A DNA stretch of 64,000 bases from positions 3,037,649 through 3,101,648 of the forward strand of contig NC_057754.1 of NCBI RefSeq assembly GCF_004010195.1, given 5' to 3'. Within the stretch, counting starts at the first letter, position 1. Every line of letters begins with the position of its first letter. Positions 7,141 through 57,284 of the stretch are shown piece after piece. The translations under genes and the position numbers were made by a program. This stretch comes from Chiloscyllium plagiosum (lineage: Eukaryota). Below the pieces are notes generated by a model. That model saw only the letters and a list, made by a program, of their open reading frames with translations, made no database searches and had not been told where the DNA came from.

Positions 7141-7830
7141 CAATGACACTCTCAACTCACAGAGAAAGCCCTGGCCATACACAATTGACATTTACTTATT
7201 TATTAAACATATTAGTAATGCTACCGCTACAGCCACCTCCCTCCCATCAATATTTTGCCAACACCCAGAAATACAATGGGGAACTATTATGTAAACATGT
7301 CACATTGTAATTACGCCCACCCACCAGTAGGAGTGGTGGAGTTGCACAAGGAGGTGAGGCCAGTGGGGGCAATTTCCTGGAACATCCCACTTTGTTCCTA
7401 ATTTGCCCAACAAAGCGCGCTGCCTCACCAACAGGCTCTCTGCCTGTATTCCTGATGAAGGGCTTTTGCCCGAAACGTCGATTTTACTGCTCCCCGGATG
7501 CTGCCTGAACTGCTGTGCATTCCCAGCGCCACTCTAATCCACACCCCTTTTTGTTTGTCACATTCTCTGTCACCCTCTCTGCCCTCCCCACACTCCACTG
7601 TACTTTCCACTCTGGCAGTTAGACTAGGCATTGCTCTACCATGATCGCCTAGTTTGGACGCTCAACGTCCTTTCTCCCCCAGCACTCCGCGCCTCCACTT
7701 TAACGCTAGCCCCCTGCACACTTCACTTTAGCTTTGAGTCATCACAAGACGCCAGCTTGCTTTCTCTCCATGGTTGCTGCCTGACCCACTACGAGCTCCA
7801 GCATTGTTTTAGTTTCCAGTACCTACTTAC

Positions 7831-7930
7831 CAATGTAGGCAATGCGATCGGTGACCATGTATTTGTTGTGGTTGACCCTGCTGAACGGTATTTTTTTCTG
7901 TTGCTCTGTGGCTGGAACTTTGAAGATCTT
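7831..7930 (-). CDS. PLD3-like exon with second HKD motif
   Basis: cttgcag|[34 protein letters not shown]|gtaagt; 100 nt, phase 0 to 1. Confidence 0.95.
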
Positions 7931-8264
7931 CTGCAAGAGGAAAATGAGAGGGGCTGGGGACAGTCATGTGTTGGATGAAAGCGCAACAGATTCTCGTCAC
8001 CACGTGTTAACCATCGTAGAGAATGACATGGAGTTCCACAGCTGATGACTGCTCGTACAGTCACGCTGGCGTTAGTACAAAGAGTAGGAAGCCGGTCAGC
8101 TCAGTTGGTTGAGAGGCTGGCTTGTGATGCAGAGTCACACCAACGAGGTAGGCTTGAATCCGGCAGCGGGCTGAGATCCTGCCTTCTTGAGCTCACCCTT
8201 TAACCTGAGGCATGCTCTAATGAGAGAGAGTGGGACACCGACGACTGCTAACGGCGACTGTGGG

Positions 8265-8880
8265 GGTGGCACGGTGTCTCAGTGGTTAGCACTACTGACC
8301 CACAGCACCAGGGACCCGGGTTCGATTCCAGCCCCAGGTAACTGTCTGTGTGGAGTTTGCACGTTCTCCCCGTCTCTGCGTGGGGTTTCCTCCGTGTGCT
8401 CCGGTTTACTCCCACAGTCCAAATATGTGCAGGTTAGGGTGAATTGGGCATGGGAAATTGTCCCATAGTGCCCATGGGTGTGCAGGTTAGGGTGGATTGG
8501 CCGTGCTAAATTGTCCCGTAGTGCCCAGGGATGTGCAGGTTAGGGTAGATTGGCCGTGCTAAATTGCCCCATAATGTCCAAGGATGTGCAGGTTAGGGTG
8601 AATTGGCCGTGCTAAATTGCCCCATAATGTCCAGCGATGTGCAGGTTAGGGTGGATTGGCCATGCTAAATTGCCCCATAATGTCCAGGGATGTGCAGGTT
8701 AGGGTGGGTTGGCCATGCTAAATTGTCCCATAGTGCCCAGGGATGTGCAGGTTAGGTGCATTAGTCAGGGGTAAATATAGGATAACAGGGTAGGGGGATG
8801 GCTCCGCGTGGGTCACTCTCCGGAGGGTTGGTGTGGACTTGTTGGGCCGAAGGGCCTGTTTCCACACGGTAGGGATTCCA
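8265..8880 (+). mobile_element. HE1 SINE with internally amplified 53-bp unit
   Basis: Head GGTGGCACGGTG..CAGTGGTTAGC, ~6 tandem GGTTAGGGTGGATTGGCC..GATGTGCA units, CR1-like tail. Confidence 0.9.
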
Positions 8881-9042
8881 TAAAATAAAAATACCATTCC
8901 TCCGCCCTTCCTCCGATGGACCTTTCATCCGTCAGCCCTATGGGCAAGGTGGCCCCCCCTCTGTAATGGGCAGGGGGGTGCGTACTTAGAGTCGAATGGA
9001 AGCACAGGCAGTAAAATGGCTGCTGACAATCCAGTGACTCAC

Positions 9043-9208
9043 CACCTCGATATTGCAGTGCAGCGGCTGCTCAGCGAGGACACTCAGGGACTTCAGGTAG
9101 ACATACATCGGCCGATAAGAATGCTCCCAGCAGCTGATTAGCAGGCGGACTGACACTTTCCGCTGGCAAGCCGCTTCACGCAGACGATCGTCGATGGCGG
9201 ACCAGAAT
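9043..9208 (-). CDS. PLD3-like exon
   Basis: aag|(R)FWSAIDDRLREAACQRKVSVRLLISCWEHS...HCNIEV|gtgagt; 166 nt, phase 2 to 0. Confidence 0.95.
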
Positions 9209-9804
9209 CTTTGGGGGGGCGGGAGTGGAAAGCGGGCAATCGGCAAATGAACAAGTTAAAACATTGTAACAGATGCACCCCCTCACTTACCAATTGAGAC
9301 GATCTTTCCACCTCAGAACGTCACACGCACCCACCAAAACACCCTCTGAAGGGCAGCGATGCCTGATGGGCACACAGCAAGATCCCACGGGATTGGCGAC
9401 GCACCCAAGACCGTCCGATTTGTAGCGACACGGGTCGGGTTAAAGCATCAGTAAAGGTATCCACCCCCTACTCCACATCCTTCCCATAAACACTCCCCTG
9501 CCCCCAAACCACCTCTGCCTTCAAACGGTTACCAAGGAATGTCTCACACCCAGTCGAGGGGCTGGTGAGCTATCCTTGGCTCGGCCCCTCGACAGCAGCA
9601 GGGCCGGCCCGGCTATTTCCCCAGCTCGGGGTGGTGTGGGGGCAGCGGTGGGGCATCACGCCGGACACAGAGCTCAGAGGCAGCAGTCAGGGGATGCAGG
9701 GGGCAGGGACCGGCTCCAAGTGGTTGGGTAGATCTCCCAACCCTGCGCGCACCTCTCATCCCTGGCAAAACCTTCCTCACCTCTCAGGTCAGCAGCCCAC
9801 CTAC

Positions 9805-9944
9805 CTCGGAGGTTTGCAGTACTGGCAGAGGGGGACCAACTCCATGACTGAGATGAAGACATAAGCTTCCGCATCATCGATCACGCTCAGGATGGCGCTG
9901 AGGTCTGAAGTGCGACCAGAGGCGCAGAGGGAGGGCGGAGCGCT
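9805..9944 (-). CDS. PLD3-like exon
   Basis: ctgcag|SAPPSLCASGRTSDLSAILSVIDDAEAYVFISVMELVPLCQYCKPPR|gtaggt; 140 nt, phase 0 to 2. Confidence 0.95.
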
Positions 9945-10059
9945 CTGCAGGAGAGAGAGAGTCCAGTACAGTTGGTCGTACGGCCAGCCCGGGTCCTACG
10001 TTCACTCCCATCCCTCAGACTCAGAAGAGAAATCTAACATAGCTTACATCTCTACACAA

Positions 10060-10712
10060 GTGGGCAGCACGGTGGCTGTATGGTTAGCACTGCTGCCTCA
10101 CAGCGCCAGGGACCGGGATTCGATTCCAGCCTCGGGTGACTGTCTTTGTGTGGAGTTTGCACATTCTCCCTGTGTCTGCATGGGTTTCCTCCGGGTGCTC
10201 CGGTTTCCTCCCACAATCCAAAGATGCACAGGTTAGGGTGGATTGGCCGTGCTAAATTGTCCCATAGTGCCCAGGGATGTACAGGTTAGGGTGGATTGGC
10301 CTTGCTAAATTGTCCCATAGTGTCCAGGGATGTGCAGGTTAGGATGGATTGGCTGTGCCAAATTGTCCCATAGTGTCCAGGGATGTGCAGGTTAGGGTGA
10401 ATTGGCCGTGCTAAATTGTCCCATAGTGCCCAGGGATGTGCAGGTTAGGGTGGATTGACCGTGCTAAATTGTCCCATAGTGCCCAGGGATGCACAGGTTA
10501 GGGTGAATTGGCCGTGCTAAATTGTCCATAGTGCCCAGGGATGTGCAGGTTAGGGTGGATTGGCCATGGGAAATTGCCCCATAGTGCCCAGGGATGTGTA
10601 GTGTTGGGGCATGAGTCAGGGTTAATGTAGGGGAATGGGTCTGGGTGGGTTACTCTTCGGAGGGTCAGCGTGGACCTGTTGGGCCAAAGTGTTTCCACAC
10701 TGTAGGGATTCT
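10060..10712 (+). mobile_element. HE1 SINE with ~7 tandem 53-bp internal units
   Basis: Same structure as 8265-8880. Confidence 0.9.
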
Positions 10713-11004
10713 GGGATACAGTGCCACACTTGCAAGAGATCTATCAGAGTGTGTGCATTGTTCAAGCCCCCTTGTCTCAGGTAGGGTATACTTACCGTGG
10801 ATGGAAAACCGAGGAACTTCCTGACCTCCGACAGATGGTAGCATGAGGAGAGGTTGGGTAGGTTGGGCCTGTACCCATTGGAGCTTTGAAGAATGTGGGC
10901 AGGACTTATACAGTTAATGAGGTAAAAACAATGACTGCAGATGCTGGAAACCAGATTCTGGATTAGTGGTGCTGGAAGAGCACAGCAATTCAGGCAGCAT
11001 CCGA

Positions 11005-12515
11005 AGGTAAGGCCCTGGGGAGTGCTGTTGAACAGAGACCTAGGGGTCCAGGTGCATAGTTCCTTGAAAGTAGAGTAACAGGTAGACAGGATAGTGAAGA
11101 AGGTGTTTGGTATGCTTGCCTTCATTGGTCAGTGCATTGAGTACGGGAGTTGGGAGGTCATGTTGCGGCTGTACAGGATGTCAGTAAGTCACTTTTGGAA
11201 TACTGCGTTCAATTCTGGTCTCCCTGCTTTCGGAAGGATGTTGTGAAACTTGAAAGGGTTCAGAAGAGATTTACAAGGATGTTGGCAGGGCTGGAGGGTT
11301 TGAGCAACAGGGAGAGGCTGAATAGGACTATTTTCCCTAGAAAGTCAGAGGCTGAGGGGTGACCTTATAGAGGTTTATAAAATCATGAGGGGCATGGATA
11401 GGATAAATAGATAAGGTCTTTTCCTCAGGGTGTATGAGCCCAAACATAGAGGCCATAGGTTTAAGGTGAGAGGGGAAAGATATAAAAAGGACCCAAGGAG
11501 CAGGTTTTTCATTCAGAGCGTAGTGTGTGTATGGCAGGAGTTGCCAGAGGACGTCATGGAGTCATAGAGATGTACAGCATGGAAACAGACCCTTCGGTCC
11601 AACCCGTCCATGCCGACCAGATATCCCAACCCAATCTAGTCCCACCTGCCAGCACCCGGCCCATATCCCTCCAAACCCTTCCTATTCATATACCCATCCA
11701 AATGCCTTTTAAATGTTGTCACTGTACCAGCCTCCACCACATCCTCTGGCAGCTCATTCCACACACGTACCACCCTCTGCGTGAAAATGTTGCCCTTTTA
11801 GGTCCCTTTTATATCTTTCTCCTCTCACCCGAAACCTATGCCCTCTAGTTCTGCACTCCCCCCCCACTAGGGAAGAGACTTTGTCTATTTATCCTATCCA
11901 TGTCCCTCATGATTTTGTAAACCTCTATAAGGTCATCCCTCAGCCTCCGACACTCCAGGGAAAACAGCCCCAGCCTGTTCAGCCTCTCCCTGTAGCTCAA
12001 ACCCTCCAATCCTGGCAACATCCTTGTAAATCTTTTCTGAACCCTTTCAAGTTTCACAGGAGGCTGGTACAATTACAGCATTTAGAAGGCATCTAGATGG
12101 GTATATGAATAGGTAAAAACAATGGCTACAGATGCTGGAAGCCAGATTCTGGAATAGAGTGGTGCCGGAAAAGTGATGCTGCAGTTCAGGCAGCATCCGA
12201 GGAGCAGGAAAATCCGACGTTTCGGGCAAAAGCCCTTCATCAGGAATACGGAAGGGTTTAGAGGGATATGGGGAGAAAGTGAGGTCTGCAGATGCTGGAG
12301 ATCAGAGCTGGAAATGTGTTGCTGGAAAAGCGCAGCAGGTCAGGCAGCATCCAGGGAACAGGAGAATCGACGTTTCGGGCATAAGCCCTTCTTCTTTAGA
12401 GGGATATGGACCAAATGCTGGCAAGTGGGACTAGATTGGGTCGAAATATCCGGGCAGCATGGACGAGTTGGACCGAAGGGTCTGTTTCCGTGCTGTCCAC
12501 CTCTGTGACTCTGAC
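11005..12515. mobile_element. Nested CR1/HER1 3' ends (plus copy, inverted copy 11555-12056) with two short Penelope-derived insertions
   Basis: LEYCVQFWSP/KLERVQKRFTRML ORFs on both strands; insertions at ~12112-12243 and 12272-12394. Confidence 0.9.
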
Positions 12516-12634
12516 TCTAAATACAATCAAAATTCTCCCGCTCCCCGCTAGCAGCAGAGACCGGCCACCTATCCCTGTCTTCCCCACCCTCTGACTTTCA
12601 GCACAGCGACGCGGGAAAGGACTGGGAGACTCAC

Positions 12635-12835
12635 CGAGACGTACACGTCCGCTTCAATCCCGTTCAGTTTCAGCCTGAGCGGCTGCTCCTTGCTGGACAG
12701 GGCAGTGTACCTACCAGGCCACCGTCGGGGGAGAGCTGCCCCCTCCCCACCCAAGTACCAGTAGGTGCCGAAGATCCTGTCCATGTCACGTGCCAGGCAG
12801 CTACAGTTGGACAGCACCACCCCCAGCTCCTTGAC
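12635..12835 (-). CDS. PLD3-like exon
   Basis: gacag|VKELGVVLSNCSCLARDMDRIFGTYW...EADVYVS|gtgag; 201 nt, phase 0 to 0. Confidence 0.95.
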
Positions 12836-14779
12836 CTGTCAGCAGAACGCGAGGAGAGGGGAAATGTGAGCCACTGAAGAATTACATTACCCTGGCGCCT
12901 ACCTCTACTTCCCGAGCCAACGGATCCGCAACTCAAAACGCGTGCATAGTAGGATCCCAACAACCCACCTGGCCTGGTTTCCGTGACTGGGTACAAATAT
13001 CAAACCCGGGGCCCTGTGCAGGGCACAGCTGCCCGCGTTCCCCACACTTCTGACTTGCCCTTTACTTTTCAATCATTCCCGGGATGTGGGCATCTCTGGC
13101 CAGGCCAGCGCTTACTGCCCCATCCTAATTACCCAGAAGGCAACTGAGAGTCAACCACATTGCCGTGGGTCTGGAGTCACATTTAGGCCACATCGGGTAA
13201 GTTTGGCATTTTCCTTCCCTGAAGGGCATTAGTGAACCAGATGGGTTTTTCCAACAATCAGCAATTCACCCATGGTCATCGTTAGGCTCTTAATTCCAAA
13301 TTTTGTTTCATTTTGAAAATTAATTCAAGTTCCACCATGTTGGGATTTGAATAGGTCCCCAGCACATCACCAGGAGTCTCTGGATCAATAGCTTGGAGAT
13401 AACACCACTAGGCCATCACCTCTTCTTCCTGTTGGATCTTCCTTGTCTACCTTCAGGGATTGGTGAGGTGGGTTTACTATCCAGCCAATGGATAGGCACC
13501 TTCAACAATGCTCTCTGTTGGCCTGGATTTGCACTGGACCCCAGTGCAGGAACTTACAGCCCCACAACTTCCTAAGAAGAGTGGACAGAGCTGTTCCTCT
13601 GACAGGGCCACGACAGCAGACTAGAATCTCACCCACACCCTGAACACCTCCCAGCAGGTCACTGGAAAGTAATTACCTGATTAAAACCTTCTTCCCCAAC
13701 CCACACACAGAGGCACGACACAACTATTTGGTTACCATGACGCTTTGATCTAACGATAGCAATAACCGACATGAGTTGTCCTTCACTAACAGCCCCTCGG
13801 GCCATTACAGACGGTGATTAAGAGTTAACCCCCATTGCTGTGGGTCTGGAACCGTGTGTGCGTGTGGGCCAGACTGGGTAAGGATGGCAGATTTCCTTCC
13901 CTGAAGGGCGGTGGTGAAACGGATGGGTTTTTGTGACAATCTTTGATGGTCATTATCATGGAGAGGAGCTGGATGTTCCAGGTTTCACAGTGGCCTACTG
14001 CCTCACAGCACTAGGGACCTGGGTTTCTGGGTTTGATTCCACCCTCAGGCAACTGCGTGTGTGTGTGTGTGTGTGTATAAGGGGGGTTTCCTTTCAAAGA
14101 TGTGCAGGTTAGTGTGGATTGGCCATGCTACATTGCCCCATAGTGTGCAGGCTAGGTGGGTTAGCCATGGGAAATTGGTGGTTGGTCGCTTTTTGGTGTG
14201 GACTCATAGAGTCATAGAGATGTACAGCATGGAAACAGACCCTTTGGTCCAACCCTTCCATATATACCAACCCAATCTAGTCCCAATGGCCTGTTTCCAT
14301 ACTGCAAGGAATTCTATGAAGTTCCATCAGCAGCTGTGCCAAGATTTGAACCGGTGGCCTCATCATCAGAGTGGGCCTCTGGATTATCTAGCGCAGTGAC
14401 ATTACCATTACACCAGCCCCTCCTCCCACCAAAAGCAGGTCTCGAGTGGTTGGCCACCTCAGGGTGAATGAATAAGCTTTGCATTGGATGATCGCCCTTT
14501 GATGGTGGGCACCAGTTTGATGCCCATCTTTCACCGGACTTCGTGGAGATGAGGGGAACGAGAGAAGAGACTGAAGGAATCTCTGAAAAGTGGGGGAGGT
14601 GCAGAAAGTTGGAATTCAGGCCACAACTGGATCAGCCACTCCCTTGTGGAATGGAGAAGCAGGCTTGGAGGGACCGAATGGCCGCCCTTTGCTTAGGGTT
14701 GCGTCCTCTGAACCATCGGTGGTTGGTCTCCCCAGGGGCCTCTAAGCGCACACCACCGCCACCCCTCCCTGTTAGTTAC

Positions 14780-14907
14780 CTGGGTCAGTGAGCGCCAGTC
14801 CATGTTGGCGCTGCCGATGTAGACATGGCGTCCATCGACCACCCAGACCTTGGTGTGGACAATGCCACCCGTCAGGTTTTTCAGGAACACATGCCTCACC
14901 TCAGCAC
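14780..14907 (-). CDS. PLD3-like exon with first HKD motif
   Basis: tgcag|(G)[42 protein letters not shown]|gtaac; 128 nt, phase 1 to 0. Confidence 0.97.
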
Positions 14908-16109
14908 CTGCACCACAAAACAGCACAGTCAGACGAGAATCAGAGCGTGACTCAGAACATAGACTGACAACAGGAACTTACCGTGAGCAATAGATCTCCA
15001 GACCTTTGGAGTACTAAGGATATCCAGAACGATGCGCAGGAAGCAGAGTTGGTGGAGGACAGGAAGATTGCTACAATCCTTTCCTTAAAATTTTTAACCA
15101 AAGGATGTGGCTGGGCCTGCATTTATTGCCTGTTCCTAATTGCCCAGAGGGCAGTGAAGAGTCAACCACATCGCTGTGGGTCTGGGGTCACCAGTAGGCC
15201 CAGACCTCAGGCAAGGACAGTAGTTCCCTTTCCTGAAGGACATTATTGAACATGAGATGGATTTTTGCAACAATGGTTTCATGGTCATCATTGGTCTTGA
15301 TTCCAGATTCTTTTTACTGAATTCAAATAGCACCACATGCTGTCATGGGGTTCAAACACAGGTTTCCCAGGTCTCTGAGACCGTGGGCCTCTGGATTATT
15401 ACTCAGGGTAAAACCATTAGACCTTCACCTCCCCTCCAGGAGCTAGGAAGCTGTAGGGTCACCACTATTGAACATCCATGGTCTCATTCAATGGGGGGGG
15501 GGGTAGAAGAAGACTCAATGGGCTGAATGGCCTTCCCCCACTCCACTCCTATAGTCTTACGGTCTCGTGAACAGAACGGTGAGAGGGCGATTGACCTGAA
15601 GGCAGAAGAGATCAGATCGTTCCAAGTCGGGTATCCCGCAAGTTTGTTGCCAACGTTGGATTCATCAAATCTTAGTAGGAAGGGGGCAGGAAAATGCAAA
15701 AAGGAAGATAGAAATCTGGAATAAATGGCCTACTGGGGTAGGCTTCTGAAGCAAATGTATAAAGGGAATGAATTAAAACAATATGTGGTCGGCATGGACA
15801 GGTTGGACCAAAGGGTCTGTTTCCATGCTGTACATCTCTCTGACTCTATAAGAGGGCTTGACAGAGAGGGAGACAACACACAAATATTGTGGTCCAAAAA
15901 TTTCAAAGAACTTGAGGAAGCAGCAGTGTGCTTCCCCTGTGGCCGAATAGCCTGCCACCATTCACAGTGGCCAAGGGGCTACTAACAATCCTGGCAAGAA
16001 TTTGGGGTTATCCTGGTGGCGAATGTTGAGGGAGAGTTGGACGGGGGTGGTGGTCATACGGAGGGACAGGAACATAGAGGAGGCGGCAGTCAGTAAACAA
16101 GGGACTCAC

Positions 16110-16224
16110 CGCTTTTCGCCAGATCGCCTGTGTCTTTTTCAGACTGCTGGGGGCTGTTGACAGCGATCTTCAGGGTAATCCCTCGTGATTTCAAACCCGC
16201 CAGCTGCTTAAAGACCTGCTCACC
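16110..16224 (-). CDS. PLD3-like exon
   Basis: cgcag|GEQVFKQLAGLKSRGITLKIAVNSPQQSEKDTGDLAKSG|gtgagt; 115 nt, phase 0 to 1. Confidence 0.93.
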
Positions 16225-16297
16225 CTGCGCACAAACCACATCGCTAAAATTAGGGCGTGAGGCAACTCCACAGAATATCCCGTCACCGAGTCACCAC

Positions 16298-16832
16298 TTA
16301 GAGTCATAGAGATGTACAGCACGGAAACAGATCCTTCGGCCCAACCCGTCCATGCCGACCAGATCTCCCAACCCAATCCAGTCCCACCTGCCAGCACCCG
16401 GCCCATATCCCTCCAAACCCTTCCTATTCATATACCCATCCAAATGCCCCTTAAATGTTTCAATTGTACCAGCCTCCACCACTTCCTCTAGCAGCTCATT
16501 CCATACACGCACCACCCTCTGTGTGAAAAAGTTGCCTCTTGGATCTCTTTTATATCTTTCCCTTCTCACCCAAAACCTATGCCCCTCTAGTTCTGTACTC
16601 CCAGGGAAAAGACTTTGTCTATTTATCCTATCCATGCCCCTCATGATTTTGTAAACCTCTATAATGTCACCCCTCAGCCTCCGACGCTCCAGGGAAAACA
16701 GCCCCAGCCTGTTCAGCCTCTCCCTGTAGCTCAAACCCTCCAACCCTGGCAACATCCTTGTAAATCTTTTCTGAACCCTTTCAAGTTTCACAACATCTTT
16801 CAGATAGGAAGGAGACCAGAATTGCACACCAT
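16298..16832 (-). mobile_element. Young 5'-truncated CR1/HER1 LINE
   Basis: Open VQFWSP..KLERVQKRFTRMLPGLEGLSYRERL..NFFTQRVVRVWNEL and CTCTATGACTCTA tail. Confidence 0.95.
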
Positions 16833-17924
16833 AGCCTCTAATTGACACGGGGGGAGTCCTTGACCCCAGGAAGGCCCCCACTGGGCCAGCTCTCAGAGTG
16901 AACAGAACCTCTGACACTCCCCTGTTAATTTTCCTTTGGCCAGCTGGCTCAGAGTCAGCCCCCTGAACGGAGGAGATTCTAAATCTCCACTCAGGGTTAT
17001 TTCTTCTCTCTCTCTCTCTCTCTCTCTCTCCACCCCCACCCTACCGCCTAACATCGGTAGTGCTTATTCAGTCCCCAGCGCCCATGTCGCGCGTGTGTGT
17101 AGGTGTCGGACACAGTGAAGAATAACAAATACAGAAATTTTTATCCCTATTCCACCGCCAGGAAGAAAGGAAACACCCCAGTGGCCAGTGACAAGCAGTG
17201 CCCTTCTCGGAGGGCAATGCTGTGTGATCAAACAGTGAAGGGGAGGGCAGGGATTGCCTCAAAATAGAGTCGGAGGGGGAAATAAAACCCTCCACACCCT
17301 GCGGTGCCCACCTCTCCCTGAAAACCTCGAGGGTGCTGGTAGACACCGCGTGCTCCTTCTCTGGGGACACCTCTTCACCTGTTTATATCTGTCATCCCTG
17401 GTTGTACCAGGTTAACCTGATGAAGGGCTTTTGCCCGAAACGTCGATTTTCCTGCTCCTCGGATGCTGCCTGACCTGCTGTGCTTTTCCAGCACCACTCT
17501 AATCTAGACTCTGGTTTCCAGCATCTGCAGCCCTCACTTTTGCCAAGGTTAACAACCCCAAACAGGGAGCTCGCCTTCTATAAGGTTCACCTGGCTGACC
17601 TCATTATACAGCTTTAAACTAATCGAAGGAAGCCCAGTGTCTCTCAGAGAGCAAGTACAACTGGTTGGAAAATCTCATCCGTTTGGAAACGTTTGCCTGA
17701 AGGGAAGGCCAACACTTATTGCCCATCCCTAATTGTCCGAGGGACTAACTAGGGCCATTACAGAGGGCAGTTAGGAGACAAACCACATTGCTGTGGTTGT
17801 GGAGTCACATGCAGGCCAGACAGGGCCCAGATTTCGTTCCCAAAACCGGACGCTTTTCCCTGGCAGGTTTTAGCGATTGAAATTTTGATTAGTGATGGAG
17901 AAAGCATTACAGGAAGTGCAGGCT

Positions 17925-18974
17925 TGAAAGTGGAGTGACGGGTAGGCAGGATAGTGAAGAAGGCGTTTGGTATGGCTTGCCTTTATTGGTCAGTGCACTG
18001 ACTATGGGAGTTGGGAGGTCTGTACAGGACATTGGTCAGGCCACTTTTGGAATACTGCATTCAATTCCCTGCCACAAGCAGGAGGTTGTGAAACGTGAAA
18101 GGGTTGAGAAAAGATTTACAAGAATGTTGCCAGGGTTGGAGGGTTTGAGCTACAGGGAGAGGCTGACTACACCAGCACCGCTTTCCCTGGAGCGTTGGAG
18201 GCTGAGGGGTGACCTTATAGAGACTTATAAAATCATCAAACGCATGGATAGGCTAAATAGTCAAAGTCTTTTCCTCGGGGTAGGGGAGTTCAGCACTAGA
18301 GGGCTGAGGTTTAAGGTGAGAGGGAAAAGGTTTAAAAGGGATCAGAGGGGCTACTTTTTTCACACAGAGGGTGGTGTGTGTATGGAATGAGCTGCCAGGA
18401 GAAGTGGTGGAGGCTGGTACAATGACAACATTTAAAAGGCACCTGGATGGGTATGTGAATAGAATAGCCTTTAGTGTGAATGGTAGGGAATTAGAGTTTG
18501 CGATTTTTGTAAAGATTTGTAGCTCAGGGCTGAGGTTCAGGTTGTAAGTTTGCTCACTGAGCTGGAAGACTGGCTCTCAGACGTTTCGTCACCATGCTGG
18601 GTAACATCATCAGTGAGCCTCTGATGAAGCGCTGGTGTTGTGTCTCGCTTTCTATTGGTGTGTCTAGGTCTAAACAAAAAGACAGAACGCGCCCAGAGAC
18701 TCTAGCCACATTACCACACATTAAAGGCATCTCGGAGATGGCAACCAGACTACTCCAGCCCCTTGGCATCGTGGTAGCCCATAAACCTACCAACACACTG
18801 AAAGAGCTCTTGATGAACCTAAAGGACCCTGTACCAACAACCAGCAGAATTAATGTCATTTACAAAATACCCTGCAAGGCCTGCGACAAAATACATCAGA
18901 CAGACGAGCAGGAAACTAGCTACCAGGATACATGAGCACCAACTGGCCACCAAAGGACACGACCAACTATCACT

Positions 18975-19005
<31 letters not shown>

Positions 19006-19412
19006 GATGAGGGGTACCAGTCCGACTGGGATAATACATCCATCCTAGACAATGCACGGGAATCCTTACAGGCCTGGCACTCAAACCGAAACTCCATCAA
19101 CAAACACATCGATTTGAACCCCATTTACCAAACTCTCAGAAACACAACCTGAAGTGATAACACCCACCACATCACGAGACACATCAATAGAAAGCGAGAC
19201 ACAACACCAGCGCTTCATCAGAGGCTCACTGATGATGTTACCCAGCATGGTGACGAAACGTCCGAGAACAAGTCTTCCAGCTCACCGAGCAAACTCACAG
19301 CCCGGATTTGGAGGGATATGGGCCAAATGCTGGCAGATTAATTTGGGATATCTGGTCGGCACGGACAAGGTGGGTTGAAGGGTCCGTTTGCGTGCTGTAC
19401 ATCTCTGTGACT
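17925..19412 (+). mobile_element. CR1/HER1 3' fragment interrupted by a Penelope element
   Basis: CR1 ORF to ~18460; tail resumes at ~19304 (GGATTTGGAGGGATATGGG). Confidence 0.9.
18500..19303 (+). mobile_element. Penelope-like element: GIY-YIG endonuclease remnant between inverted terminal repeats
   Basis: TLPHIKGISE..LLQPLGI..HKPTNTL..NVIYKIPCKAC..QTSRKLATRIHEH..SINKHIDL; ~18545-18660 is the reverse complement of ~19180-19295. Confidence 0.92.
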
Positions 19413-19466
19413 CCAGGACTCTTACGTGTGTATAAGCCAGGCAAGGATTGAGAAAGCACTGTTCAC

Positions 19467-19650
19467 CTGAGAGGCTGAAGGATCCCCTTGGCTCAGGTCA
19501 CCGCCCCGCAATGTGAAGTAAAAGGCTGCGATTTCCACAGTGTGGTTGGCCTGATCGAGGAGATCCATCCAGCCGTTGTAGATGGAGACATGGTGAGGGG
19601 CACCTTTGGAGAACGAAAGTCCGATCGGAATACTCTCCACCAGAGTCAAC
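19467..19650 (-). CDS. PLD3-like exon (start of the catalytic domain)
   Basis: tttgcag|(x)LTLVESIPIGLSF...WMDLLDQANHTVEIAAFYFTLRG...SASQ|gtgaac; 184 nt, phase 2 to 0. Confidence 0.95.
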
Positions 19651-21399
19651 CTGCAAACCAAACAATACTCACACGGATCTCTCCCGGGATTTAAATGTCC
19701 CAGAAGCAGCCAGGGTGCCTCCGTGCCGATCTCCCGTTCCCTGGACATCTCCGCTACTGCCTCATGTGCCAACTCACTTGCTGTGCTCGCTTACCCTCAC
19801 TGGTGGCCAGTCAATTCTTACTCTGTAACCTCCTCCCTGCACCTACTCCTACACCCCCTCCCTGTCTCTGTCACCCCCTCCAGCCCCTACACCCCTCCCT
19901 ATCTCTGTCACCCNNNNNNNNNNNNNNNNNNNNNNNNNNNNNNNNNNNNNNNNNNNNNNNNNNNNNNNNNNNNNNNNNNNNNNNNNNNNNNNNNNNNNNN
20001 NNNNNNNNNNNNNNNNNNNNNNNNNNNNNNNNNNNNNNNNNNNNNNNNNNNNNNNNNNNNNNNNNNNNNNNNNNNNNNNNNNNNNNNNNNNNNNNNNNNN
20101 NNNNNNNNNNNNNNNNNNNNNNNNNNNNNNNNNNNNNNNNNNNNNNNNNNNNNNNNNNNNNNNNNNNNNNNNNNNNNNNNNNNNNNNNNNNNNNNNNNNN
20201 NNNNNNNNNNNNNNNNNNNNNNNNNNNNNNNNNNNNNNNNNNNNNNNNNNNNNNNNNNNNNNNNNNNNNNNNNNNNNNNNNNNNNNNNNNNNNNNNNNNN
20301 NNNNNNNNNNNNNNNNNNNNNNNNNNNNNNNNNNNNNNNNNNNNNNNNNNNNNNNNNNNNNNNNNNNNNNNNNNNNNNNNNNNNNNNNNNNNNNNNNNNN
20401 NNNNNNNNNNNNNNNNNNNNNNNNNNNNNNNNNNNNNNNNNNNNNNNNNNNNNNNNNNNNNNNNNNNNNNNNNNNNNNNNNNNNNNNNNNNNNNNNNNNN
20501 NNNNNNNNNNNNNNNNNNNNNNNNNNNNNNNNNNNNNNNNNNNNNNNNNNNNNNNNNNNNNNNNNNNNNNNNNNNNNNNNNNNNNNNNNNNNNNNNNNNN
20601 NNNNNNNNNNNNNNNNNNNNNNNNNNNNNNNNNNNNNNNNNNNNNNNNNNNNNNNNNNNNNNNNNNNNNNNNNNNNNNNNNNNNNNNNNNNNNNNNNNNN
20701 NNNNNNNNNNNNNNNNNNNNNNGGAGGAGGGTGAGAGGGGGGGGGGGGGGGGGGGGGGGGAGAGGGAGGGGGAGAGAGAGAGAGATATAGAGAGGGAGGG
20801 GGAGAGAGGGAGATGGGGGTGGAAGAGATGGAGAGACAGGGAGGGAGAGAGACGGAGAGAGACAGAGAGAGAGAGAGAGACGGGGGTGGGGGAACAAAAC
20901 AGGCAATCACCAAGAGTGGCAAGCATTGAGAGCACCTTCCTATTGCTGAAGCCACCCACGGTCGAATAGCTAGCCCAGACTCACAAGGTTGGCTCCATGG
21001 GCAGAATGTGACAGATCTGCTCAAATCACCACCCCGTACGCCGTCACAGGTCAGAGGGCATTTCCACCATGTGAGGCATCACAGTACATTCCGATGCTAT
21101 GCCCCCTCCCTGCAATGCACAAGTGTGAATGTGCGGGGGTGGGGGGGGGGGTTAGGGGGAATGACCAGGCTGGACAGGGCTTAGACAGAAAAGGACCTGA
21201 TTCCAATCCCTGTGTCCTGAACGTATCCACCTCCCCACCACCCCCCACCAACCACCCACCCCACCCCCGGCGACCATTGCTCATTCCCCATACCCTCCGA
21301 CCTCGCATCCAAGGACAGCAGAGGCCATTTGAAAATGAGGGGTGTGTGTGACGAGAAAGTCCCTCATCACTCATGTCTCATCATTACCATCACCTCCAT

Positions 21400-42871: not shown

Positions 42872-43075
42872 AGCTGAAAAATGTGTTGCTGGAAAAGCGC
42901 AGTAGGTCAGGCAGCATCCAAGGAGCAGGGGAATCGACGTTTCGGGCATAAGCCCTTCTTCAGGAATCTGCCCGAAACATTGATTCTCCTGCTCCTTGGA
43001 CGCTGCCTGACCTGCGCTTTTCCACCAACACATTTTTCAGCTCTGATCTCCAGCATCTGCAGTCCTCACTTTCTC
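42872..43075. mobile_element. Palindromic Penelope-derived short element with 17-bp TSD
   Basis: TSD CCAATCAGTTCATTCAG at 42855-42871 and 43076-43092; two inverted arms. Confidence 0.88.
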
Positions 43076-46154: not shown

Positions 46155-48970
46155 CCTTCAACTTCCCCAGTATTGACTGGGAATACTATAGTTCAAGTAG
46201 TTAGATGGGTCAGTTTTTGTTCAACGTGTGCAGGAGGGTTTTCTGACACCATATGTAGACAGGCCAACAAGGGGAGATATCATATTGGATTTGGTACTGG
46301 GGAATGAACCCAGTCAGGTGTTAGATTTGGAGGTAGGTGAGCACTTTGGTGATAGTGACCACAATTCGGTTATGTTTACAATAGCAATGGGCAGGGTTAG
46401 GTATAAACCGTAGGGAAAGAGGTATAACTGGGGGAAAGGCAATTATGAAGCGAGGAGGCAAGATTTAAGATGCATAGGATGGGGATGGACACTGCAGGGG
46501 ATGGACACTCTTGAAATGTGGAGCTTATTCAAGGAACAACTACTGCGGGTCCTTGATAAGTATATACCTATCAGGCAGGGAGGTAGCTGTTGAGAGAGGG
46601 AGCCATGTTTTACTGAAGACATTAAAGCTCTTGTCAAGAGGAAGACTCATATGAGGATGAGGTGAGACTTATAGGTTAGCCAGAAAAGACCTAAAGAGAG
46701 CGCTAAGAAGAGCCAGGAGGAGACATGAGAAGTTGTTGGCGGAAAACCCTAAGGCCTTCTATAGGTGTATCAGGAATAAAAGAATGACTAGAGTAAGATT
46801 AGGTCCAATCAAAGATAGTTGTGGAAGTTATGTGTAGAATCTGAGGACATAGGGGAAGTGCTTAATGAATACTTTTTGTCAGGATTCACATTGGAAAAGG
46901 GCAATGTTAGTGAGAATCCGGAGATACAGGCGACAGGATTAGATGGGATTGAGGTCGACAAAGAAGAGGTTTTAGCAATTTTGGAAGATCTGAAAATAGG
47001 TAAGTCCCCAGGGCCAGATGGGATTTATCCTCGGATTCTCTGGGAAGCCAGGGAGGAAATTGCCGAGCCTTTGGCTTCGATCTTTATATCATCATTGTTA
47101 ACAGGAGTAGTGCCGGAAGACTGGAGGATAGCAAATGTTGTTCCCTTGTTTGGGAAGGGGAGTCGGGACAACCCTGGGAATTATAGGCCAGTCAGCTTTC
47201 CTTAAGTTGTGGGTAAGGTGTTGGAAAAGATTATAAGAGATAGGATGTATAATCATCTGGAAAGGAATAATTTGATTAGGGATAGTCAACACGGTTTTGT
47301 GAAGGGTAAGCCATGCCTCACTAACCTTTATTGAGTTCTTTGAGAAGATGACAAAACAAGTGGATGAAGGTAAGCTGGTTGATGTGACGTATATGGACTT
47401 CAGTAAGGTGTTTGATAAGGTTCCACACAATAGGCTATCACACAAAATACAGAGTTTTGGGATTGAAGGCGATCTAGCGGTTTGGATCAGAAATTGGCTA
47501 GCTGAGAGAGGACAGAGGGGGTGGTTGATGGGAAATGTTCATTCTGGAGCTCAGTTACCAGTGGTATGCCGCAAGCATCTGTTTTGAGACCACTGCTGTT
47601 TGTCATTTTTATAAATGATCCGGAGGTGAGTGTAGAAGGGTGGGTTGATAAATTTGCGGATGACTCTAAGGTAGGCAGAGTTGTAGATAGTGCTGAAGGA
47701 TGTTATGGGTTACGCAGGACATAGATAAGATGCAGAGCTGGGCAGAGAAATGGCAAATAGAGTTTAATGTGGAAAAGTGTGAGGTAGTTCACTTCAGAAG
47801 AAGTAACAGAAATGTAGAGTACTGGGCTAATGGTAAAACTCTTGGCAGTGTAGATGAACAGAGAGATCTCTGTGTCCAGCTGCATAAGTCCCTGAAAGTT
47901 GCCACCCGGGTTGACAGGGTTGTTAAGAAGGTATGTGGTGTGTTGGTGTTTTTTGGTAGGGAGATTTGAGTTTCCGAGCCACGAGGTCATGGTTCAGCTG
48001 TACAAGATGCTGATAAGGCCCCATCTGGAGTATTGCGTGCAGTTCTGGTCAACGCATTATAGGAAGGATGTGGAAGCTTGGGAAAGGGTTCAGAGGAGAT
48101 TTACTGGGATGTTGCCTGGTATGGAGGGAAGGCTGTATGAGGAAAGGCTGAGGGAACTGAGGCTGTTTTCGTTATAGAGAAGAACATTGAGAGGTGACTT
48201 AATTGTTGTGGTTCTGTTCGCCGAGCTGGAAGTTTTTGTTGCAAACGTTTCGTCCCCTGGCTAGGCGACATCATCAGTGCTTGGGAGCCTCCTGCGAAGC
48301 GCTTCTTTGATGTTTCCTCCGATGTTTATAGTGGTCTGTCCCTGCCGCTTCCGGTTGACGCACGCAGACAACAAGAACATGAATTCGACTGGGACAACAC
48401 TACCATCATAGGGCAAGCCAGACAGAGAAAACCCAGGGAATTCCTAAAGGCATGGCAACCACCCACAAACTCCATCAACAAACACATAGACCTGGACCCA
48501 ATATACCAACCACGACAGGTTATGAGTCCTAGGGGTCGCAGTAGTCTGGCTGTCAGTTCCGAGATGCTCCTGATGTATGGTAGTGTGGCTAGTCCTTTTA
48601 GTTGTGGTTGTGCTACAAATCTTCGCACAAACCTTGAGGTGACTTAATTGATACGTCAGATAGGGTGGACAGTGAGAGCCTTTTTTCTTGGATGGTGAAG
48701 GCTAACACGAGGGGACAGAGCATTAAAATGAGGGGTGATAGATTTAGGACAGATATCAGGGGTAGTTTTTTTTTACCCAGAGTAGCAGAGACGTAGAACA
48801 AACTGCCTGCAACAGTAGTAGACTCACCGATGTTGAGGGCATTTAAATGGGCATTGAACATACATATAGATAATAATGGAATGGAGTAGGTTAGATGGGC
48901 ATCGGATTAATTTTGTAGGTCGGTGCAGCAGCGAGGGCCAAAGGGCCTGTACTGAGCTGTAGCGCTCTGT
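46155..48970 (+). mobile_element. Long degenerate CR1 LINE ORF2 (endonuclease C-term, RT, 3' tail)
   Basis: LDLVLGNE, SDHN, KSPGPDGIYPRIL, NYRPVS, YMDFSKVFDKVPH, FADD, HLEYCVQFWS; many frameshifts. Confidence 0.95.
48206..48635. mobile_element. Rearranged Penelope fragment inserted in CR1 with 15-bp TSD
   Basis: TSD GAGGTGACTTAATTG at 48191-48205 and 48636-48650; ATLPYIRSISELTARLLRPLG (-) and SINKHIDL (+). Confidence 0.9.
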
Positions 48971-49324: not shown

Positions 49325-51030
49325 TGGTCATATAGCCACATAGCACGAAACAGACCCTTCGATCCCATCAGGAGAAATTGAGGACTGCAGATGCTGGAGA
49401 GCAGAGTCAAGAGTGTAGTGCTGGAAAAGCACAGCAGGTCAGGCAGCATCTGAGGAGCTGGAGAATTGACGTTTCGGGCATAAGCCATTCCTGCTGAAGG
49501 GCTTATGCCTGAAGTACTGATTCTCCTGCCCCTTGGATGCTGCCTGACCTGCTGTGCTTTTCCAGCACCACACTCTCGACTCTAATCCAACTAGTCCGTG
49601 CCGAACATAATTCTGAACTAAACTAGTCCCACCTGTCTGCTCCTGGAGCATATCCCTACAAACCCTTTCCTATTCATGTCCTTATCCAAGTTTCTTTTAA
49701 ATGTTGTAACTGTGCCCGCATCCACCACTTTCTCTGGAAGTTCATTTCAAATGCGAGTCACCCTCTTTGTTAAAAAAAATTGCCCCCATGTCTTTTAATC
49801 TCTCTCCTCTCACCTTAAAAATATGCTCTATAGTCTTGAAATCCCTGACCCTACAGAAAAGGCGCCTACCATTAACCCGATCTATATCCCTCATGATTTT
49901 ATAAATCTCTATAAGGTCACCCTTTAACCTCCTATGCTCCAGTAAAAAAAGGCCTGTCCAGCTTTGCTTTATAACTCAAACCTTCCATACCTGGCAACAT
50001 CCTGGTAAGTCTCTTCTGAACCCTCTCCAGCTTAATCATATCCTTCCTATAACAGGGCGACCAGAACTGGATACAATACTCCAGAGAAGAGGCCTCATCA
50101 ATGTCCTGTCCAACCCTAAGTTCGGTACCCATAGGGAGGGCCTCAACCGGGACCTTGGGTTCATGTCACATTACAGGTGATCACCATTGCACTACACACA
50201 CACACAGATATTCCTACACACACACACACACACACACTCTCACATACACACGGACACAGATACACACAGACACCCACACACACCCTTATGGACACACACA
50301 CACTCCCACACATGCACACCCTCACAGACTTAAGACAGTCTGCACTCACTATACACACGCACACTCACAACCCCCACCTCAGACAGACACATTCACACAC
50401 AGACAGACAAAGACCCACATGCACACCTATATTTTGTGTGCTGAATTTGTACTTGCAGAGTTACATTGCACTATGCTCAAAAACTGCATACATTCATGTA
50501 GAACTCTGNNNNNNNNNNNNNNNNNNNNNNNNNNNNNNNNNNNNNNNNNNNNNNNNNNNNNNNNNNNNNNNNNNNNNNNNNNNNNNNNNNNNNNNNNNNN
50601 NNNNNNNNNNNNNNNNNNNNNNNNNNNNNNNNNNNNNNNNNNNNNNNNCACTAGCCTCCACAATCACCTGATGAAGGAGCGTCGCTCCGAAAGCTAGTGC
50701 TTCCAATTAAACCTGTTGGACTATAACCTGGTGTTGTGTGATTTTTAACTTTGTACACCCCAGTCCAACACCGGCATCTCCAAATCCTGTCCAACCCTCA
50801 ACATGATGTCCCAACTCCTACACTCAAAGGACTGAGTAATGAAGGCAAGGGCGCTAAACATCTTTCTATATGTGACACAAACTTCAAAGAGTTACGTACA
50901 TGGTCCCTCTGTTCTACAACACCACCAATTTTGGTGTCATCTGCAAACTTACTAACCATGCCTTCTATATTCTCATTTATATAAATGATAAACAAAAGAG
51001 GACTCAGAATTGATCCCTGTGAGACACCGC
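49325..51030 (-). mobile_element. CR1 fragment carrying nested Penelope-derived insertions (49371-49582; 50118-50784)
   Basis: LEYCIQFWSP and SGVSQGSILSPLLF..FADD ORFs; TSD TCCTGTCCAACCCT at 50104-50117 and 50785-50798. Confidence 0.88.
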
Positions 51031-53260: not shown

Positions 53261-53571
53261 TTCTCTGAGGAACATCCAAAGACGGTGAAAGTTATCCGAT
53301 AAATATGGAAGCTGCTTGCGTATTGGGGTTGAGGTTGAGGCTGTGGAGCAGGCCATTCAGCCCATCGAGCCCCTTGCTGTGTTTGTGGTAGACCAGTTGC
53401 CCGTCCAGTGTCACTCAATGATCCTTCTCCACTCTCTCTCTTTTCTCTTCCAGGATGAGCGAGGCCTGGGGATTCCTGTGAGTCTGACACCATCCCTGAT
53501 TCTCCCCCACCCCCCACCCCCCCCCACTCCCGACACACGGTTCACACCTCCTCTTCTCCCCCCCCCCCCCG

Positions 53572-55146
53572 ATGGAGTTCCCTGACCATGGTCGTTTGCT
53601 GCTGCAGAGCCTGCGGGACCAGAGACACCAGGGCTTCCTGTGTGACTGCACGGTGCTGGTGGGGGCGGTGCAGTTCCAGGCCCACCGGGCCGTGCTCGCC
53701 TCCTTCAGCACCTACTTCCACATGTTCTACAAGGAGGAGGCGGTAGGCCGCAGGGACGTAGTGGGCCTGGACGACGAGATAGTGACGGCGCCGGCCTTCT
53801 CCCTGCTGCTGGAGTTCATGTACGAGGGCCGGCTCCGCTTCAGCGGTGCGCCCACCGAGGATGTGCTGGCTGCGGCCAGCTTCCTGCACATGAACGACAT
53901 CGTCAAGGTGTGCAAGGGCCGGCTGAAGGCCCGGGCCCTGGCGGAGGCTGACAGCACCCGCAAGGAGGATGAGGCCCAGCAGCAACCGGGAGCAGGGGGA
54001 GGGCTCGGCCTATCCGCCTCCTACCGGGGGGTCGTGCCTCCCCCACCCGTCCCTCCCCTGCAGCCCCCACCGCCCTCTCGGAGACAGCCCCCGGCGCCAG
54101 CGGAGCTGCCCTACGCCTCGGGGGGCGAGGAGGACAGGGCCGGAGCCTCCCTCCTGCTGCTGCAGCCCCCCGAGGCACCGGCCCCCGGTCGCTGGCCCCC
54201 CGAGCCGGCCGACACCACCACCAGCAGCCAGGCCAGCATGGAGACCGAGGCCTACCCCAGCAGGCCGGCCGGCAACGTCCTGGCCAGCCCTTCCTCCTCC
54301 ACGGCGGAGGCCCCCTGCCCTCGCTGGGCCGGGCTGTCGGGCAGCAGGAGGAGGCCCCACCAGGAGGAGGAGGAGGAGGGTGGGGAGGAGGAGGCAGGGG
54401 ACGGGGACACTGAGGACGACGGCGATCTGATCACGGTCAAGGTGGAGGACGACCTGTTCTCCGAGGAGGAGGCCGGAGAGGAACCGCCTGAGGGCGATGC
54501 TCCCGAGGAGGTGGAGGCCGCTGCTGCCTCCTGCTGCCCGCAGCTCGATGACCTCTTCCAGCAGCCACCGGCGGAGTTAGCCCAGGCCCAGACCCCGGCC
54601 TTGGCCTGTGGAGGGGGAGGGGGCCACATCGTCATCTCGGACGAGGATGAGATGCCGTCGGAGGATGACGCGTTCCCGGCTCCTGGCCTCTACCACCACC
54701 GGGGTCTCCCACCCCCCGCCCCACAGGCCTCTCCGGGAGACTTGGGCTCCCCTGCCGCCTTGGGCCTTTCGGCCAAGCTCTACTTCCAGGACCTGCCGCC
54801 AGGGCCAGGGCCAGGGCCTGGGCCGGGCCCAGCCGGCTCAGAGGATGAGCTGCCGACCTGCGGGGCCTGCGGCAAGACTTTCTCCTGTGCCTACAGCCTG
54901 AAGCGGCACGCCCTGGTGCACACCCGCGAGAGGCCCCATAGCTGCCGCTTCTGTCTCCGTCGCTACTCACAGTCCGGGGACCTGTACCGCCACATGCGCA
55001 AGTACCACAACGCCCACGTCTCGTCGTCATCCCCTGGACCAGGCCCCGGACCAGGCCCTGGTCCCGGACCCAGCCCCGGCCGACAGGACTCCTCCAACGG
55101 TGGCTGGAAGTGGATGGACAAGCCTCCTTCAGAACAGTGGAAATGA
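53572..55146 (+). CDS. ZBTB3: Zinc finger and BTB domain-containing protein 3 (524 aa, BTB plus two C2H2 fingers), single coding exon; acceptor at 53453
   Basis: [43 protein letters not shown]; fingers [50 protein letters not shown]; two fingers and the [12 protein letters not shown] pattern fit ZBTB3 rather than four-finger ZBTB18/42. Confidence 0.93.
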
Positions 55147-57284
55147 GATCCATTCCCTTTCCCTGACCTCTCCTCCACCCTCGACCCTTCCCCCTCTCTA
55201 TCCTCAGTTCAATTCTTACCCCTCTTTTACCCTCAACCCTTCCCCCACCCTCCACTACCTTNNNNNNNNNNNNNNNNNNNNNNNNNNNNNNNNNNNNNNN
55301 NNNNNNNNNNNNNNNNNNNNNNNNNNNNNNNNNNNNNNNNNNNNNNNNNNNNNNNNNNNNNNNNNNNNNNNNNNNNNNNNNNNNNNNNNNNNTCCCTCCC
55401 GACTATCCTCAACTGAACTCTTCCCCCTCTATCCCCAACTCTTCCACCCCCATTAGCCTCATCTCTTCCTGCCCCATCATTAACCCCTACCCCTCCCCTT
55501 CTGTGCCCTGAAGTGACAGTGGACAGTTTTCGATGCTGCAAGAGTTCTGACATTTGGAGGAAAAAAACCCCACAAAATTGCAACAAACAAAATCTTTTAT
55601 ATATAAATATATATATCTCCACACCAGCCATCCTGTAAAATGACTTTAAATTAAATTCATCCCCAGGAGCAGTTGAGTAAAAGCTGTACATTTGAGGAAT
55701 GGTCTTTGTTTCTAATTAATTTCTTTGTTTTTTTTCTCTCTCTCTGGGTCAAATGGGTATGTTTTAACAGCATTCAATTTGTTACATATATTAAAACAAT
55801 CTTGGACCAGTTTGCTGCACTCACCTCACTGCTGTGTGATAATCCTGTTGACTATGTTTGTGATGGTAATTTGTTAATGTAAACGTGTCACATTGTGAAG
55901 ACTGCCATTTTAGCCAGGGGGCACCCGCTGGGCAGGAGGAGGAGTGGGGGGCAGATGTGGTTACAGGGACAGTTTTTAAAGTGAGGGTCTATGGTAATTG
56001 TGTATGTCCTATCAACAGACTACTCTGGTCTCATTTTCCAGCACTTGGCCTTTAGCCTTTTGATGACTTTCTGATAAAGCTGTTCAGAGATGTTATTACA
56101 GTACTCTGGGACTCATACCCAGGTCTGCTGTCTCACTGGTAAGAGCCCCCTCACATAACCTTATATGCTACGCTGATCGAAACGATCATCTGAATCTCAG
56201 ATGTCTTGGTGTTTCCCAACTCTTCGTTTTAGGCAGAATTCCAGATACCCACCACGTTTTGGGTGAAAACAAATCCTGCCTTAAATCCCCTCTAAACCTC
56301 CCGCTCTTCACCTTAAATCTATGCTTCCCCCACCCTCCCTCTACTAAGGAAAAATGTTTCTCACTGTCTGTGCCTCTCTGTTGTACACCTCAGCCTTCTC
56401 TACTTGAAGGAAAACAACACATCTATCCAGTCTCTTCACTGCTGAAACACTCCAGCCCTGGCAACTCCCTGCTGAATCTCTGTACGCCCTCTTAACTGCA
56501 ACCACATGCTTCCTGTCAGAACTAGGAGCAGGGGCCAGATGGCCTCCACCTGTTCCATCAGTAAGATCACGACTGACCTCTTCATGGACTCAGCTCCACC
56601 TACCCGCTCACACACCACAACCCTTAATTCCTTTGGCGAGGCAACCGGTACGGTGCACAGTAATCCAGCTGTGGCCGAACTAATGCTGTACACCACTTCA
56701 GCATAATCTCTCTACCCAATGCTTTTATTAGTGAAGACGTTGAATACAAGTATCCCATATGCCTTTGGAAAATTTTCCCTTGGAAATTGTTTGTTCGTGC
56801 TCCCGAACTCTTAAGCTACAGGCCGATGCTACGTTCTGGAGTCACTATGTGCTGACCCAATTGCTTCTCCACCCAGTTTCATTTATCCAGTAGCCTCTAG
56901 ATAAGACAAAGGAACAGAAGTATGACTGATTCAGTCCCATTTAAAGAGCTATTGGCTGATCCGATAACCTTCAACTCCTTCCCCATAACTCAATTCTCTT
57001 ACCAGTTAAAAATCCGTCTGTCTTAAGACTAAATTACCCAGCCTCAACAGTTAAAATTTCCACAGATAAACTAGCCTCAGGGAAGAAATCCCTCATCTCA
57101 GTCTTTAAATGTGCGGATCCCCCCCCCCCCCTACTCTGATGTAGAGGTGCCAGTGTTGGCCTGCTTCCACAGTGAAGATAGGAGGGAAGGGGCTAGGACC
57201 AGAAGGTGTAATCTCAGACCTCACCTGATGAAGGAGCAGTGCTCTGAAAGCTTATGATTTAAATAAACCTGGTGTCATATTGTG

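Follow-up and report, generated by a model that had tools for sequence, protein, structure and literature searches.

Minimal type-I hammerhead ribozymes (min-HHRs) are carried in the terminal repeats of Penelope-like elements, where they are mostly solitary and number about 4,000 per genome in coelacanth and about 9,000 in Xenopus (PMC4209133). The min-HHR monomer was reported to be inactive while the dimer and trimer cut weakly (PMC4209133), and low rates even for dimers have been described elsewhere (PMC6765202). In the type-I double hammerhead each core depends on the partner copy for its cleavage site and for the 3' strand of its stem I (PMC4209133), so dimer partners need matching stem I sequences. 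The hammerhead of the anole Poseidon element cut only in the presence of protein and was not needed for insertion in vitro, and the report on it describes no RNA-seq reads ending at the hammerhead site (PMC11167929). Here we analyzed 64,000 bases of the shark Chiloscyllium plagiosum (RefSeq assembly GCF_004010195.1, contig NC_057754.1, positions 3,037,649 to 3,101,648; "the window" below), which include 3,128 N and thus 60,872 called bases and which contain a PLD3-like gene (PLD) on the minus strand. A preliminary description of this stretch had reported three hammerhead families (A, B and C) in Penelope-derived repeats and had proposed that several of them act on the PLD pre-mRNA. We conclude that the motifs are very probably min-HHRs from the terminal repeats of several Penelope-like families that now lie as inert relics in the PLD pre-mRNA.

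Hammerhead motifs in the window

All nine copies named as intact (C1 to C4, A1 to A3, B1 and B2; Table 1) matched their description in sequence, position and strand, and the three copies of family B listed as decayed were present as well, with core nucleotide C3 at 31960, 34397 and 57225. When the core was scored at C3 U4 G5 A6 N7 G8 A9, G12 A13 A14 A15.1 and U16.1 H17, all 12 positions were kept in 11 of 16 copies examined, including every one of the nine. A strict descriptor (CUGANGA, stem II of at least 4 bp, GAAA, a 2-nt palindromic centre, UH, and stem I of at least 2 bp), which was drafted after the motifs had been seen but along the published consensus, found six matches on both strands of the window, namely C1, C3, C4, A1, B1 and B2. 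When the sequence was dinucleotide-shuffled 300 times in 2-kb blocks, the same descriptor matched 0.007 times on average and at most once, with any match in only 2 of the 300 shuffles, and a chance origin of the motifs was therefore rejected. Stem I is where copies A2, C2 and the one at 57225 fail this descriptor; the A.C mismatch at the first stem I pair of A2 and the reduction of stem I to a single pair in C2 had previously been overlooked. In family C stem I consists of two pairs plus a U.U mismatch, the exception being copy C3, in which an extra G allows four pairs. The window holds 10 core-complete copies with stem II in its called bases, or about 1 per 6 kb.

The motif fits the published min-HHR consensus (PMC4209133) in its extra base before stem II, its G10.1-C11.1 pair and its palindromic 15.2-16.2 segment. 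Among 17 aligned rows, G10.1-C11.1 closes stem II in 16 and G-U in 1, one unpaired base follows A9, and the loop-less palindromic stem III reads ACGU in A, A3 and C and AGCU in B. The rows comprised the nine window copies and eight hand-picked motifs out of 64 loci obtained by a pattern scan of metagenomes, the pattern itself favouring stem II pairing, and one family C pair in the alignment is misaligned. Paired cells made up 89.3% of this alignment compared with 65.3 ± 2.7% after shuffling and 25-48% in slid controls, which bears out the earlier claim that the stems differ in sequence between families yet stay paired. Seven of nine pairs change on both sides, a count reached by 53 of 500 shuffles, and stem I is the weakest element (76.5% paired). 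As read from these sequences, the covariation supports constraint between families only; the stem changes reflect selection in the parent elements and not at the PLD locus.

A covariance model built from the same nine window copies and eight metagenome motifs returned 13 window matches at an expectation value (E) of ≤0.05, of which nine were training copies and four had already been seen. No new intact copy emerged from the model over the window, and three more matches at E 0.2-0.96 were taken as chance. Scanning the window against Rfam gave eight matches at E up to 1 with no hammerhead family among them. A candidate microRNA precursor at 36181-36275, below gathering scores, was rejected because it is the B1 fold-back of an element tail.

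Several damaged copies were also recorded. Two decayed copies at 39479-39516 (plus) and 60040-60077 (minus), 80% alike and with stem II broken, represent a further hammerhead-bearing family (D), the tail of which is about 80% like the family C tail over 34-39 nt. Three more family C fold-back inserts have damaged or missing cores (49371-49583, 62284-62487 and 25695-25867), and core-less family C tails occur at 10935-11004, 30913-30935 and 31750-31828. Judged by their target duplications, two C inserts start at or inside the core (12394 and 17417), while C1 and C3 start a few bases ahead of it.

Penelope-like elements around the motifs

For family A, the link to Penelope is given by the GIY-YIG open reading frame (ORF) remnant between A1 and A2, which is 60% identical over 149 aa to shark protein P0121 (sum E 1.6e-61). 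A2 starts 72 nt past the stop of this remnant on the same strand, and A1 forms the inverted arm at the other end of the Penelope fragment (126 nt, 94%, 511 nt apart). In shark proteins P0121 and P0122 the reading frame continues into the A and A3 motifs, and in P0124 this endonuclease is fused to a reverse transcriptase (RT) domain (RVT_1, E 3e-6, below the curated cut-off). The CX2-5CxxC linker is absent from P0121, P0122 and P0124, which fits the Penelope/Poseidon clade (PMC8557442). The GIY-YIG fragment that holds A3 is rearranged and has a target duplication of 15 bp. P0121 to P0126 represent several public shark gene models (MAP3K7, CUEDC2 and WBP2-like isoforms) that terminate in GIY-YIG sequence from Penelope, three of them extending as far as the hammerhead region, and these ends are probably annotation artefacts or exonised fragments.

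Family B is tied to Penelope both inside and outside the window. The insert bearing B2 (approximately 50118-50784) is bounded by a 14-bp target duplication and opens with the C-terminal remnant of a GIY-YIG ORF (Table 1). The B motif recurs with 34 of 36 nt identical in two marine contigs, L012 (966-1001), where it stands beside an inverted RT fragment, and L019 (1330-1365), where it lies downstream of a GIY-YIG ORF with a zinc linker (CX2-5CxxC). A third contig, L017 (882-953), has a B motif in which one stem I pair is changed, and the match there is 74% across 78 nt, tail included. The flanks of these three contigs showed no other DNA-level match to the window, and a motif kept at 34 of 36 nt between otherwise unmatched flanks points to strong constraint in the parent elements. 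The zinc linker found in L019 is a trait of the Neptune/Nematis clade, to which the family B parent may belong; it is not preserved in the B insert of the window, whose ORF remnant is 19 aa only. The fold-back around B1 (36141-36314) measures 176 nt and has a one-sided tail of 32 nt, and the decayed B copy at 31957 belongs to a fold-back insert (31836-32025) whose target duplication is 11 bp long. Many other metagenome loci (L001, L003, L004 and others), from a few marine samples, carry hammerhead-like motifs with one extra A after GAAA and are probably host animal DNA. The Neptune-type remnant listed in Table 1, a candidate parent fragment for family C, runs into an assembly gap where its terminal repeat would lie, and the repeat is not visible.

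Family C is likely to be Penelope-derived as well, because its layout of fold-back arms, one-sided extension and target duplications is that of A and B. Fold-back arms were present in all seven regions tested, which had been chosen from earlier BLAST matches, with a one-sided extension of approximately 25-55 nt; for comparison, EN+ Penelope insertions are described as having an inverted copy and a 30-40-bp tail (PMC8557442). Target duplications measured 11-17 bp at 5 of 13 sites and 7-8 bp at 3, and were absent from the remaining 5. The core-less family C copy at 12272-12394, which had escaped the earlier inspection, shows a 15-bp target duplication; it is 5'-truncated within the core, having lost C3 and U4, but its cleavage strand is intact, with H17 at 12369. 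Thus, the reported identity of the motifs as min-HHRs in Penelope-derived repeats holds for A and B and is probable for C.

An alternative is that family C is a separate hammerhead-bearing short repeat, akin to a short interspersed nuclear element (SINE) or a retrozyme. Four negative results speak for such a repeat and weigh against the Penelope origin of C: all the C copies of the window lack an adjoining ORF remnant, a search for a link to an ORF in viral contigs gave 0 matches, no family C copy occurs in the 64 metagenome loci, and the translated C4 frame compared with 1.84 billion proteins matched one unrelated repeat protein only. Against this alternative stand the fold-back, one-sided tail and target duplication that C has in common with A and B, as well as the lack of tandem arrays, unlike retrozymes of the non-long-terminal-repeat type (non-LTR retrozymes) as they are described (bioRxiv 10.64898/2026.07.22.740005). 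We consider a separate origin of family C improbable.

Predicted fate of the motifs in the PLD pre-mRNA

The statement that several copies are sense to the PLD pre-mRNA was not confirmed. Of the 12 listed copies, the coding span includes just 5, two of them sense (A1 and C3) and three antisense (C1, C2 and A2); no B copy is contained in the span, and core-complete copies show no sense excess. A1 and C3 belong to different families and are separated by 6329 nt and three exons, and a mixed dimer between them would have a mismatch at the first pair of stem I in each of its two junctions (+26.6 kcal/mol, the worst of eight pairs tested). The proposal that intronic copies dimerise and cut the PLD transcript co-transcriptionally could not be upheld, since the coding span has no two core-complete copies of one family in sense orientation. 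Furthermore, A1 is predicted to be held in a 126-bp, 94% duplex with the antisense A2 arm, which is transcribed ahead of A1 in the PLD transcript; the predicted pairing probability was 1.00, also with the chain ending just past A1, and enforcing stem II of A1 was predicted to cost 36.5 kcal/mol. Outside the gene, cleavage strands were likewise predicted to pair with their own inverted arms (B1, 1.00; C4, 0.91; the 31957 copy, 0.66).

We propose that, in a parent element, the 4-nt palindrome would join two tandem copies, which would exchange stem I strands so that each core cuts the other copy, probably aided by the element's protein as the literature suggests. At the PLD locus, separate 5'-truncated or fold-back insertions of several families would have been left behind. 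These copies stand alone, differ in family and orientation, have lost sequence by truncation or are paired with the inverted arm of their own insertion, and an active dimer is therefore predicted not to form. The motifs are thus real members of a known RNA class, new to it from a shark, and on the folding models cleavage of the host transcript is unlikely.

Some observations pull in the opposite direction. Terms for the hammerhead core are missing from the energy model, which penalises even same-family dimers (+1.5 to +18 kcal/mol), so that folding alone cannot exclude activity. The core of copy C3 is complete and its stem I has 4 bp, and a substrate strand of the same family is located 150 nt upstream, also in sense orientation. 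The core is complete in 11 of the 16 copies examined, though high between-copy identity, that is, young age, can account for this. Finally, if the PLD transcript started at the promoter-like region near 41.5 kb, B1 would be sense too.

The second of these observations underlies the idea of one-sided local cleavage, in which C3 would cut the core-less copy about 150 nt upstream and nick the PLD intron at 12369 at a low rate. Both copies are sense, have ACGU in common and would form the stem I usual for the family (two pairs, U.U, one pair) at the junction. Forcing this junction, however, placed the structure 10.4 kcal/mol above the best fold (ensemble share ~4e-9 in the model without core terms), the second junction would be without a core, and antisense C2 (5.2 kb upstream, -212 kcal/mol) and C1 (4.6 kb downstream, -167 kcal/mol) offer the C3 region far stronger pairing. 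We judge this cleavage distinctly improbable, and a nick at 12369 would likely be without effect on the mRNA. In vivo, splicing still took place in introns that a slower hammerhead cut, a tolerance that did not extend to a fast hepatitis delta virus (HDV) ribozyme (cited in PMC2995048).

In its general form, the proposal would be that dense, intact Penelope hammerheads of the shark nick nascent host introns, either through a near neighbour, as with C3 cutting at 12369, or in trans with a Penelope protein. If true, there would be a genome-wide layer of intron cleavage shaping insertion orientation and pre-mRNA processing; we regard this as very improbable. Cutting in trans, in which another RNA would supply a copy of the same family to act on a sense copy (C3, for example), or cutting in the presence of Penelope protein, as might happen in the germ line, would draw on the abundance of the families in the window and on the protein-assisted cutting shown for one Poseidon element (PMC11167929). 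Only about 4 + 4 + 4 bp would join the two RNAs, however, antisense copies are equally common as sense copies and pair far more strongly, and the anole RNA-seq data cited above speak against ends at the site, making trans cleavage highly improbable. That several intronic copies dimerise in one PLD transcript and regulate the gene is scarcely credible: two core-complete sense copies with ACGU do exist and conserved intronic ribozymes are known in amniotes (PMC6155905), but A1 and C3 are distant and mismatched, A1 is predicted to be sequestered, and the B copies, outside the coding span, match A or C at only two of four stem III pairs. Genuine cutting of host introns would amount to a form of pre-mRNA processing both new and widespread; nothing here supports it.

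Host gene, neighbouring features and comparison with known systems

The PLD gene was mapped by tblastn with shark PLD3-like proteins, which gave 10 segments on the minus strand with 74-100% identity to the Chiloscyllium protein. The first exon at 30531 is weak (E 0.005), with an alternative start at 29800, and residues ~126-235 were not located in the window by tblastn. The top matches of the exon bearing the PLD active-site motif were shark PLD3-like proteins, led by those of Chiloscyllium and Stegostoma, and its teleost matches carry the name pld7. A perfect 38-bp array at 21.8-23.5 kb (region 21649-23500) and assembly gaps may conceal the missing exons. An apparent 827-nt inverted repeat (19914-20740 and 37263-38089) was rejected as two runs of N.

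Table 1. Hammerhead copies, element remnants and genes located in the window
Feature	Position	Strand	Characteristics
PLD3-like (pld7-type) host gene, coding span	6306..30531	-	11 exons mapped; ~110 residues not located
C1, family C min-HHR	7448..7483	+	core 12/12; H17 at 7479; antisense to PLD, last intron
C3, family C min-HHR	12212..12247	-	core 12/12; 4-bp stem I; H17 at 12216; sense to PLD
Core-less family C copy	12272..12394	-	sense to PLD; ~150 nt upstream of C3
C2, family C copy	17416..17448	+	core 12/12; 5' strand of stem I lost; antisense to PLD
A1, family A min-HHR	18576..18617	-	core 12/12; 6-bp stem II; 4-bp stem I; H17 at 18580; sense to PLD
Poseidon-type GIY-YIG ORF remnant	18663..19152	+	frameshifted; between A1 and A2
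A2, family A min-HHR	19225..19266	+	core 12/12; first stem I pair mismatched; antisense to PLD
Decayed family B copy	31957..31991	+	G12 lost; stem II broken; outside PLD coding span
Decayed B-variant copy	34394..34428	+	core 11/12
B1, family B min-HHR	36200..36234	-	core 12/12; outside PLD coding span
Neptune-type Penelope ORF remnant	38314..38954	-	zinc-finger linker and GIY-YIG; PF01541 E 4e-5; 72-79% to P0127, P0128
C4, family C min-HHR	42932..42967	-	core 12/12; in fold-back 42868-43046 with 17-bp target duplication
A3, min-HHR of second Poseidon-type subfamily	48241..48280	-	73% to A; core 12/12; GUU site
GIY-YIG ORF C-terminal remnant	50118..50174	+	opens B2-bearing insert; 68% over 19 aa to end of L019 ORF, tblastx E 4e-4
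B2, family B min-HHR	50665..50699	+	core 12/12; H17 at 50696
BTB and two-zinc-finger gene	53500-55146	+	single ORF
B-variant copy	57222..57256	+	core 12/12; first stem I pair mismatched

The single-ORF zinc-finger gene in Table 1 is putatively ZBTB3-like. No POLR2G neighbour of the kind hinted at by a fused snake gene model was found in the window. The segment 41400-42050 is CpG-rich and promoter-like (observed/expected 0.74, many CCAAT boxes), and a 33-bp tandem repeat beyond it (42080-42770) also contains CCAAT. A tRNA-like sequence on the minus strand at 57563-57634, above the Rfam gathering score, is possibly a SINE head.

Of the described systems, the metazoan Penelope min-HHRs (Cervera and De la Pena 2014, PMC4209133) are closely matched: both are type I with a CUGANGAH core, a G-C-closed stem II, a loop-less palindromic stem III and a short stem I, occur as several families per genome and are mostly solitary, and opposite-strand pairs 100-700 bp apart are reported there as seen here for A1 and A2. 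The CAC...CUA GUGCU frame of the shrimp Marsupenaeus motif (Fig. S3 of PMC4209133) is the same as that of family B. The present families differ in coming from a shark, there being no shark entry in the part of the published alignment that was compared; by title and the start of abstracts we found no paper on shark Penelope hammerheads, although subscription papers, Repbase or supplements may hold one. The Anolis Poseidon element PAc (Frangieh et al. 2024, PMC11167929) and the EN+ layout (Craig et al. 2021, PMC8557442) provide the parallel at the level of the element, with an RT plus a GIY-YIG domain at the C-terminus, a hammerhead in the terminal repeat, an inverted 5'-truncated copy and a one-sided tail; unlike PAc, the window has short dead fragments only, with no full ORF and no tandem unit.

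Non-LTR retrozymes, which have been described from one chondrichthyan genome (Li et al. 2026, bioRxiv 10.64898/2026.07.22.740005), likewise carry a type I hammerhead from Penelope terminal repeats, but they are described as tandem repeats with a hammerhead per unit, whereas the window copies are dispersed or inverted. A retrozyme array was rejected for this locus because tandem units are lacking and the tandem arrays of the window do not overlap hammerhead copies. In Xenopus, 42-44% of retrozymes overlap introns, a share that is depleted once normalised (bioRxiv 10.64898/2026.07.22.740005), and this leaves room for some selection against genic copies. The amniote intronic ribozymes (the RECK and DTNB hammerheads and the HDV-like CPEB3 ribozyme) resemble the shark copies in placing a ribozyme motif in an intron of a protein-coding gene; they are conserved single loci (PMC6155905), in contrast to the multi-copy mobile-element tails in both orientations found here. 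As found, the window therefore adds shark examples to an RNA class described in 2014. Its local density of about one core-complete copy per 6 kb, from one window only, looks above the coelacanth and Xenopus counts (PMC4209133), and such a density makes shark genomes suited to asking about cutting in vivo and about selection against sense-intronic copies.

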